From: Eledone cirrhosa
Lineage: Eukaryota
Assembly (NCBI GenBank): GCA_964016885.1
Contig: OZ024743.1
Location: 156,736,001 to 156,800,000 of the forward strand
Direction of reading: 5' to 3'
Length of the DNA: 64,000 nt
The translations under genes and the position numbers were made by a program. A model generated the notes under the pieces. The model saw only the letters and a list, made by a program, of their open reading frames with translations, did not search any database and was not told the DNA's origin. This document shows, piece after piece, positions 54,460 to 56,074 of the stretch (within the stretch, counting starts at the first letter, position 1; each line of letters begins with the position of its first letter).

Positions 54460-55137
54460 TAACTAATAATTTGGTTACGCTAATGTTTTTCTCTGCGTTG
54501 CAGTGTTTACATTTTCGATCTTTGTTAATAAATAACCAGTGCAGTTTTTATCCCCACCATCCTCTTTTGTTATAACATTCGGGTTATCGTTATGTTTTCT
54601 TAACTTCATAAGGCATATTGTTGGTTGAGGGAATATTAATCAAAAACACCACATGCAAGTCTGCACAGTAGACACTACAGTTTTTAAGCCAAAAAAGAAA
54701 CTTAACATTGTAACTTTAACACAGCTACTGAGCGACCCCGAAGCAACGCCGGGCTTTACTGCTAGTAAATAATAAAATCGAACCATATCTTTCAAAATCA
54801 GTTATGTATTCTTTCATATAAGAAATAAACTTCAAATGTACAATACGGTACCGTTCATCTCCATTAGTCACGAAACATTGTGTTGCAGAATAAATGGGAG
54901 AAAAATGGTATTAAATAAAACATGTTTACATGTCTTTGTTTGTATATCGACTACCATTGATATACACGACTACACACACACACACACACACACACACACA
55001 CACACACACACACACATATATATATATATATATATATATATATATATATATATATATATATATATATAATCAAGGTTTAGCAAATAAGAAAATGTTTCAA
55101 AATAAATTTCAAAAAGTTCACTGTACTTACTATGGTT

Positions 55138-55224
55138 ACCTTTACCGAAAGGGTTTCGAGTCTCAAAAATAAATGGATAGTCCTTGTGGGCCTCCATTGA
55201 AAATATATACTCTCGTCAGGAGGT
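55138..55224 (-). ncRNA. Type I hammerhead ribozyme, element B copy 1
   Basis: Minus strand reads ACCTC-CTGACGA-GAGT..ACTC-GAAA-CC-CTTTC-GG-TA-AAGGT. Confidence 0.8.
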
Positions 55225-55621
55225 TCTTTTCATTCGTAAGAATATAAAATTCCAGAGTTTGAATTACGAACTGGCGCTATTCAAAATTGTTCCCGAGATG
55301 TGAATGAATGATGTGGAAGCAATTCTGTCCAGTGCCGTGTGCAAAGATAGCAGGCAGAGGCAGGGAGGTCAATCTTCTACCACTATAAATAGCAGCAGTC
55401 AAACGACCAAATTTTATCTCGACCAGGGGGAGATTAATAATAATAAAGTATATATCCCTACACGCAAAAAAACATATAGGGACACATGTATTATCCAACA
55501 ATATGCCAATGTGGTTCTATGGCAAGTTAATAAATTAACGAGCCAGAACATATATAATCAAGGTTTAGCAAATAAAAGTTTCAAAATAAATTTCAAAAAA
55601 TTCACTGTACTTACTATGGTT

Positions 55622-55708
55622 ACATTTACCGAATGGGTTTCGAGTCTCAAAAATAAATGGATAGTCATTGCGGGCCTCCATCGAAAATATAAACTCTCGT
55701 CAGAAGGT
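55622..55708 (-). ncRNA. Type I hammerhead ribozyme, element B copy 2
   Basis: Minus strand reads ACCTT-CTGACGA-GAGT..ACTC-GAAA-CC-CATTC-GG-TA-AATGT. The consensus of both copies gives a perfect stem I, ACCTT/AAGGT. Confidence 0.8.
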
Positions 55709-56074
55709 TCTTTTCAATCGGAGAATATAAAATTCCCGAGTTCGAATTACGAACTGGCGCTATTCAAAATTGTTCCCGAGATGAGAATGAATGATGTGGA
55801 AGCAATTCTGTCCAGTGAGTACAGGGAATTTTTTGAAATTTATTTTGAAATTTTTTTTAATTTGCTAAACCTTGATTATATATGTTCTCGCTCGTTAATT
55901 TATTAACCTGCCACAGTACCACATTGGCATATGTTTGGATAATACATGTGTCCCTATATGTTTTTTTGCGTGTAGGAATATAAACTTTATATATATATAT
56001 ATATATACATATATATATATATATACATATATATATCATATATATATACATACTTACTTATATATATATATATA

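Follow-up and report, generated by a model that had tools for sequence, protein, structure and literature searches.

The locus at 55069–55990 of the window, which is the whole 64,000-nucleotide stretch of Eledone cirrhosa DNA analyzed here, was best explained as one insertion of a non-coding tandem family with a 486–487-nt unit and a covarying type I hammerhead motif. The family is likely a non-LTR retrozyme, whose RNA, likely a circle or else an uncut multimer, would be copied into a TA microsatellite by PLE enzymes acting in trans; a probability of about 0.8 was assigned to this reading. The initial annotation had proposed a non-autonomous hammerhead family moved by PLE machinery, and this proposal was supported by the lack of an ORF, the tandem and multimeric copies, the covariation of the stems, and the PLE-type layout in (TA)n.

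Layout of the insertion

Read 5' to 3' on the minus strand, the locus consisted of (TA)n, an inverted arm, a 5'-truncated unit, an AUAUAU junction, a full unit, and (AT)n, with (TA)n runs enclosing the 1.55 tandem units and the inverted arm. The full unit (copy 1, 55069–55549, minus strand, family positions 1–481) was 96% identical to the majority sequence of the family, and its 3' end abutted the (AT)n target at 55016–55068, which was preceded by (AC)n at 54972–55016. The AUAUAU junction (55550–55555, minus strand) corresponded to the first fixed 3' end site of the family and is the likely start of reverse transcription. Upstream of it, the 5'-truncated unit (copy 2, 55556–55817, minus strand) covered family positions 216–481. 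The inverted arm (55814–55990, plus strand) comprised family positions 418–481, the junction, and positions 1–106, and its outer end was the second fixed 3' end site, which formed the tail. The direct and inverted arms were joined via a 4-nt AGTG overlap at 55814–55817, and the (TA)n on the 5' side extended over 55988–56075. Accordingly, an inverted arm crossing the unit junction (identity 91.5%) and (TA)n flanks were both present as first described. A 484-nt monomer had also been described. The two predicted cuts were indeed 484 nt apart, but the family unit is 486–487 nt and the locus held 1.55 units rather than two full monomers; the spacing in the window is due to private indels.

Hammerhead motifs in the window copies

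Both hammerheads lay on the minus strand, one in copy 1 (55138–55224, predicted cut after GUA between 55143 and 55142) and the other in copy 2 (55622–55708, predicted cut between 55627 and 55626). The CUGACGA cores started at 55219 and 55703, the GAAA and UA elements were present, and the H17 positions (55143 and 55627) confirmed the annotated distance of 484 nt. Stem II (GAGU/ACUC) and stem III (ACC/GGU) were found in both copies. Moreover, each copy carried one different stem I mismatch, as had been noted, namely a C·A beside the core in copy 1 and a C·U in copy 2; therefore the family stem I was taken as ACCUU/AAGGU. The extended stem I reported for copy 1 was present there but was built on changes private to that copy with respect to the family majority sequence, and it was rejected as a family feature. 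The family stem III was 4 bp long (ACCG/CGGU), with a G>C change common to both window copies.

At Rfam gathering thresholds, no hammerhead was called in the window, and the sole match was a tRNA-like sequence in a neighboring element (56171–56241, minus strand, 39.5 bits). The lowest-energy predicted structure of neither window copy was the hammerhead. The active fold lay 4–15 kcal/mol above the predicted minimum, and the isolated hammerhead regions folded no better than shuffled sequences (z of −0.2 to −0.7). Having gained approximately 4% mutations since insertion, the window copy is probably a poor ribozyme.

Abundance and variation of the family

In the 3.0-Gb genome, the exact core pattern gave at least 725 matches, compared with 0 for the reversed control, and the unit query returned 3309 first-look candidates, of which 40 were scored, so that this figure is not a copy count. 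Together with the covarying stems, these numbers confirmed a family beyond chance. Thirty full copies showed a mean identity of 96.9% to their own majority sequence, which had a GC content of 37.6%, and the family period was 486–487 nt. Sister subfamilies were found at approximately 75–82% identity (433 exact matches of a 24-mer) and at approximately 70%. Arrays reached 3.1 units in the window family and 19.5 units in a sister subfamily; the latter (G000:C1:176443893-176453330) was a single block between TA runs, and its units differed by 4–15%, with block-like similarity and without a star-like pattern.

Covariation and predicted folds

Covariation was evaluated on 30 hand-picked subfamily sequences, from which the structure itself was also drawn. 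The hammerhead with its extra pairings was paired in 90.4% of the cells, compared with 31–55% in slid controls, two-sided changes occurred in 13 of the 32 pairs, and the covariation score was reached by none of 500 shuffles. The covarying pairs included all six of stem II and two of stem I across sisters at 70–82% identity, and these counts reflect few independent events at the subfamily level. The stem covariation that the initial annotation had proposed to look for in family sequences was thus present in stems I and II, and it is from covariation only that we infer ribozyme activity. The first core pair of stem II was G-C in the window family and often mismatched in the sister subfamilies. 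Stem III of the sister subfamilies was a loopless palindrome, as in the dimer-type hammerhead described in PMC4209133.

Two pairings outside the hammerhead were also found. Seven bases located 5' of stem I (55226–55232, minus strand) paired with the internal loop of stem II (55204–55198); two of these pairs covaried, and one was broken in both window copies. This 7-bp pairing would possibly be a pseudoknot if it coexists with the core, and in nested folding it formed a hairpin hiding the core, which would be inhibitory. The second pairing was an 8-bp helix between family positions 202–209 (55341–55348, minus strand) and the cut-site strand (55145–55138), which is predicted to block the cut site. 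A base common to stem I and this helix changed from U to C together with both of its partners: 35 of 36 U-units had an A in the blocker, and 27 of 32 C-units had a G. The 97.8% figure given by the blocker script is inflated, as the script was anchored on five of the eight pairs with only three positions free, and the predicted probability of the blocker in the circle was only 0.29.

The circular majority monomer was strongly folded (z = −7.1 against 40 shuffles), and its consensus structure showed two-sided changes in 19 of 104 pairs. Nested folding, which is unable to score a pseudoknot, assigned hammerhead stems I and II a probability of approximately zero; this held for the majority sequence as well, in which the hammerhead lay 6.1 kcal/mol above the minimum.

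Insertion ends

Fifty loci were retrieved for the insertion survey, and after removal of 7 duplicates 43 remained, of which 13 had been picked by a 1.9-unit query. The junction was the 3' end in all 32 non-inverted loci. Of the 11 inverted loci, 9 had their two arms ending at different sites, the junction and position 100–112, as in the window. The junction sequence was TATATAT in 42 of the 53 junctions counted, overlapping loci included, and the second end site was kept in sister subfamilies at approximately 70–80% identity. The 5' ends were scattered, with more than 2 units in 7 of the 43 loci and a maximum of 3.1. The first fixed site lay approximately 80 nt after the predicted cut and the second approximately 105–115 nt further on, and the one-sided tail was approximately 110 nt long. 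These insertions, being 5'-truncated tandems with two fixed 3' ends, fit the PLE signature. Partial tandems, an inverted 5' copy, and a one-sided tail have been described for PLEs, together with a preference for (TA)n in Hydra and Naiad (PMC8557442), and the layout here agrees with this. It also agrees with an anole PLE, for which two internal starts of reverse transcription were reported, on both target strands and approximately 85–92 nt after the ribozyme cut (PMC11167929), while reported PLE tails measure 30–40 nt.

L1-type twin priming was rejected as the origin of the inverted arm because the arm has its outer end at a site that is fixed in the family rather than next to where the direct arm ends internally (in the window, position 106 as against 216). 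Likewise, the main route was judged not to be a linear template that begins at the ribozyme cut. With only exact matches joined to TA considered, 18 loci were truncated at most 30 nt upstream of a tail anchor; 2 of them stopped at the ribozyme cut, and 7 stopped at an ATA microhomology. Thus, reverse transcription usually reads through the cut site.

At another locus (L221:4200-4570), insertions were stacked in a single TA tract behind a PLE, which had an 859-aa frame upstream and a minimal hammerhead repeat of its own. One of the stacked insertions was a copy of the window family, separate from the PLE and lying behind TA runs. The (TA)n tracts therefore act as insertion sinks.

Template of reverse transcription

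At sites polymorphic in the family, units within a locus disagreed in 78 of 723 comparisons and units of different loci in 11301 of 24788. Similarly, rare variants were common to both units in 102 of 719 cases within loci and in 285 of 25933 between loci; three of the within-locus pairs in this haplotype comparison were neighboring separate insertions. The sharing extended to one inverted arm (4 of 8, locus L046) and was concentrated in arrays of at least 2 units, a clustering that DNA-level duplication could also produce. No recurrent difference between 5' and 3' units was found; of the 510 differences, none recurred at one site in more than 3 loci. The shared haplotypes fit repeated copying of one, possibly circular, monomer.

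The mechanism may be pictured in five steps. Tandem copies would be transcribed, after which the hammerhead would cut after GUA and the monomer would be ligated into a circle, as suggested by the retrozyme literature, with re-cutting likely damped by the predicted competing folds. A PLE GIY-YIG/RT protein would then nick (TA)n, and reverse transcription would start at the AUAUAU junction or at the second fixed site, the fixed ends themselves being observed. Moving upstream, the enzyme would then pass the junction as well as the ribozyme site and cover from 1 to more than 3 units before stopping at variable points, as seen in the DNA. When both target strands are primed, one per site, the two cDNAs would join by microhomology, giving the inverted arm with a one-sided tail that is observed in the window.

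In the alternative that survived best, the same non-autonomous PLE derivative would use an uncut linear multimer as the template, with no circle and with a ribozyme mostly held off and taking little part in insertion. This alternative shares most of its parts with the best explanation, and the two confidences overlap; taken separately, it was regarded as a tentative possibility. A ligated circle accounts for the haplotype sharing, the uniformity of the units, and the read-through at the cut site, and an uncut homogeneous multimer does too. For the anole PLE, the one that has been purified, the dominant template was unprocessed linear RNA, and insertion still took place with hammerhead mutants (PMC11167929). 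Moreover, the blocker strand is transcribed ahead of the ribozyme and covaries with it, the hammerhead fold differs from the predicted minimum, and the long arrays of the sister subfamily would be able to give multimeric transcripts. However, rare variants were common to all units of an insertion, including an inverted arm, and units lacked recurrent differences by position. Both patterns are better fitted by a single monomer read repeatedly than by an aged multimer, while many homogeneous source arrays could mimic them. The circle, which would be 486–487 nt long, is put ahead of the uncut multimer as the template as a preference, not as proof.

A more elaborate version, which we consider speculative, is a switch-controlled retrozyme. 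The cut-site strand would pair either with stem I, in an active form stabilized by the loop-loop pseudoknot, or with the covarying blocker 200 nt upstream, which would lock the circle. Reverse transcription of the circle by a PLE dimer would then proceed in a rolling manner, with each target strand using one of the two fixed sites.

Coding capacity and candidate helper elements

The locus could also be an ordinary tandem pLTR, that is, what is left at the 3' end after 5' truncation has removed the ORF of an autonomous PLE, and the evidence on coding sequence made this highly improbable. The longest ORF of the majority sequence was 78 aa, and no PLE coding remnant was found in the unit on comparison with four PLE proteins from the same genome (best E of 0.26). 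The earlier statement that no RT or GIY-YIG remnant lies between the hammerheads was therefore upheld. Upstream of the full unit, the 43 loci showed a further unit, an inverted arm, or flank, and an ORF in none; continuation of other copies into a PLE ORF, which would have spoken for this origin, was seen in 0 of 43. An RT and GIY-YIG ORF between pLTRs, as in an autonomous PLE, was not found, and arrays of 3.1 and 19.5 units were free of ORFs as well. On the other side, the insertion layout is that of PLEs, a rare ORF-bearing parent is compatible with the sampling of 20–30 kb per family, and retrozymes were found to be similar to pLTRs (Li et al., bioRxiv 10.64898/2026.07.22.740005). Separately, a 200-aa plus-strand frame at 55304–55906 was considered as an endless-circle ORF and rejected, as the majority sequence contained many stops there, the unit length was not a multiple of 3, and the frame had no Pfam match.

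PLEs that end in (TA)n were abundant in the genome and included Hydra-, Neptune-, and other types, the clade names being motif readings against PMC8557442 rather than phylogenetic placements. The unit was compared with 135 PLE-bearing loci, few relative to the thousands of candidates, and had no terminus in common with them, the only matches being of 14–29 nt with weak E-values; some of the Hydra loci ended before the 3' UTR, and matches of the window and of the insertion at L221 were set aside. Likewise, no terminus in common with the unit was found in the three PLE fragments of the window, in PF01541 searches, or in 20 extra regions, and the neighboring PLE remnant at approximately 56770–57800 had nothing in common with it.

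A repeat of satellite or dispersed type, whose hammerhead would be vestigial and which would have spread as DNA or through a non-PLE LINE, would agree with the block-like similarity of units in the long array and with the poor predicted folding of the window copies, but it is the least credible origin given the spread over many contigs, the fixed 3' end with variable 5' truncation, the use of the second fixed end by inverted arms, and the compensatory changes in the ribozyme stems.

Neighboring elements in the window

A 465-nt tandem element with an inverted arm lies in (TA)n at 48072–49073 (plus strand) and is probably the element to which the initial annotation had compared the present one. 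It carries a minimal hammerhead near 48330 and 48795, with CUGAUGA, a U·U at the base of stem II, and a palindromic CUAG stem III, and further copies were present at three other loci (L113, L213, and L217). Taking it as that element, the reported lack of similarity held, the best match (E of 0.011) being TA-rich. At 56074–56710, a tandem element of approximately 256 nt with an inverted copy and (TA)n flanks contains the tRNA-like sequence mentioned above; it appears to be a SINE-like unit with a PLE-type insertion layout, and a motif scan found no canonical hammerhead in it. The region 17560–19620 contains a PLE 3' end, with a GIY-YIG remnant at approximately 18300–18620, and an inverted copy of the terminal region; its hammerheads, at 19516 (plus) and 17745 (minus), have a palindromic stem III. 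Three broken PLE remnants at 6297–8633 (plus), 39100–40400 (minus), and 56770–57800 (minus) belong to different families, namely Hydra-like, Neptune-like, and a third type with a C-terminal endonuclease, each with thousands of first-look candidates. The window also holds two broken LINE-type elements at 24105–27268 and 58900–61021 (both plus), whose endonuclease and RT motifs were read by eye from the ORF list, and short tandem repeats at 53196–53463, 53759–53917, and 54224–54459 with periods of 143, 80, and 37.

Relation to known elements

Judged by testable sequence criteria, the family is a new family of animal non-LTR retrozymes, that is, of non-autonomous PLE derivatives, and this class has been published before. 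PMC7229834 described non-LTR retrozymes of animals and proposed that PLEs mobilize them, and retrozymes have been argued to be non-autonomous PLE derivatives (Li, Clavereau, and Pollet, bioRxiv 10.64898/2026.07.22.740005). The criteria for non-LTR retrozymes were represented by one type I hammerhead per tandem unit with at least two consecutive, a non-coding unit, dimers to multimers, GC below 45%, and a monomer predicted to be self-paired; those for non-autonomous PLEs were represented by the partial tandem, 5' truncation, inverted arm, one-sided tail, and microsatellite target.

The metazoan non-LTR retrozymes of coral, mussel, and axolotl are the same kind of non-coding tandem, from dimers to multimers with a single type I hammerhead in each unit, a GC content below 45%, a strongly self-paired predicted circle, and co-occurrence with PLEs. 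The 487-nt unit is above the 170–400 nt of PMC7229834 and within the 51–972 bp of 10.64898/2026.07.22.740005. Unlike those retrozymes as described, the window family, known here from DNA alone, occurs mostly as dispersed insertions of 1–2 units in (TA)n with inverted arms and shows covariation in two additional pairings, one pseudoknot-like and one with a blocker strand; a sister pLTR was not found for it. Most animal retrozyme circles are predicted to leave the ribozyme unblocked, some mussel ones excepted (PMC7229834), and cutting in vitro was absent in 8 of 9 retrozyme dimers from Xenopus (bioRxiv 10.64898/2026.07.22.740005).

Insertions of Penelope/Poseidon, Neptune, Hydra, and Naiad share the partial tandem, 5' truncation, inverted 5' copy, and one-sided tail, and Hydra and Naiad also the (TA)n targeting (PMC8557442). 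Endonuclease-bearing PLEs also have two fixed initiation sites downstream of a hammerhead (PMC11167929) and a near-palindromic stem III (PMC4209133). In contrast to them, the window family has no RT or GIY-YIG ORF, a tail of approximately 110 nt rather than 30–40 nt, and a long stem II extension. Non-autonomous Chlamys elements such as MRC1 are also ORF-less PLE derivatives, with pLTRs and head-to-tail multicopy insertions; however, their 3' end resembles that of the helper and their clade is described as lacking canonical hammerheads (PMC8557442), whereas the window family has a hammerhead and no helper match was found for it. In the literature accessible to us, no description of this family, or of a blocker or pseudoknot in a PLE-type hammerhead, was found, though the supplements of these papers may list such families; the word "pseudoknot" has 0 occurrences in the accessible text of PMC4209133.

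As the class is already known, the added value of the family is incremental. The movement of animal retrozymes and the role of the hammerhead for PLEs have been proposed in print without demonstration. For both, the family offers testable handles: the initiation sites are known exactly, the haplotypes shared by the units of an insertion point to one monomer used repeatedly, and the on/off pairings covary. Such pairings could explain how the circle escapes self-cutting and why many genomic retrozymes fail in vitro. If the switch-controlled reading is true, the family would be a clean genomic record of PLE enzymes rolling on ribozyme-made circles.
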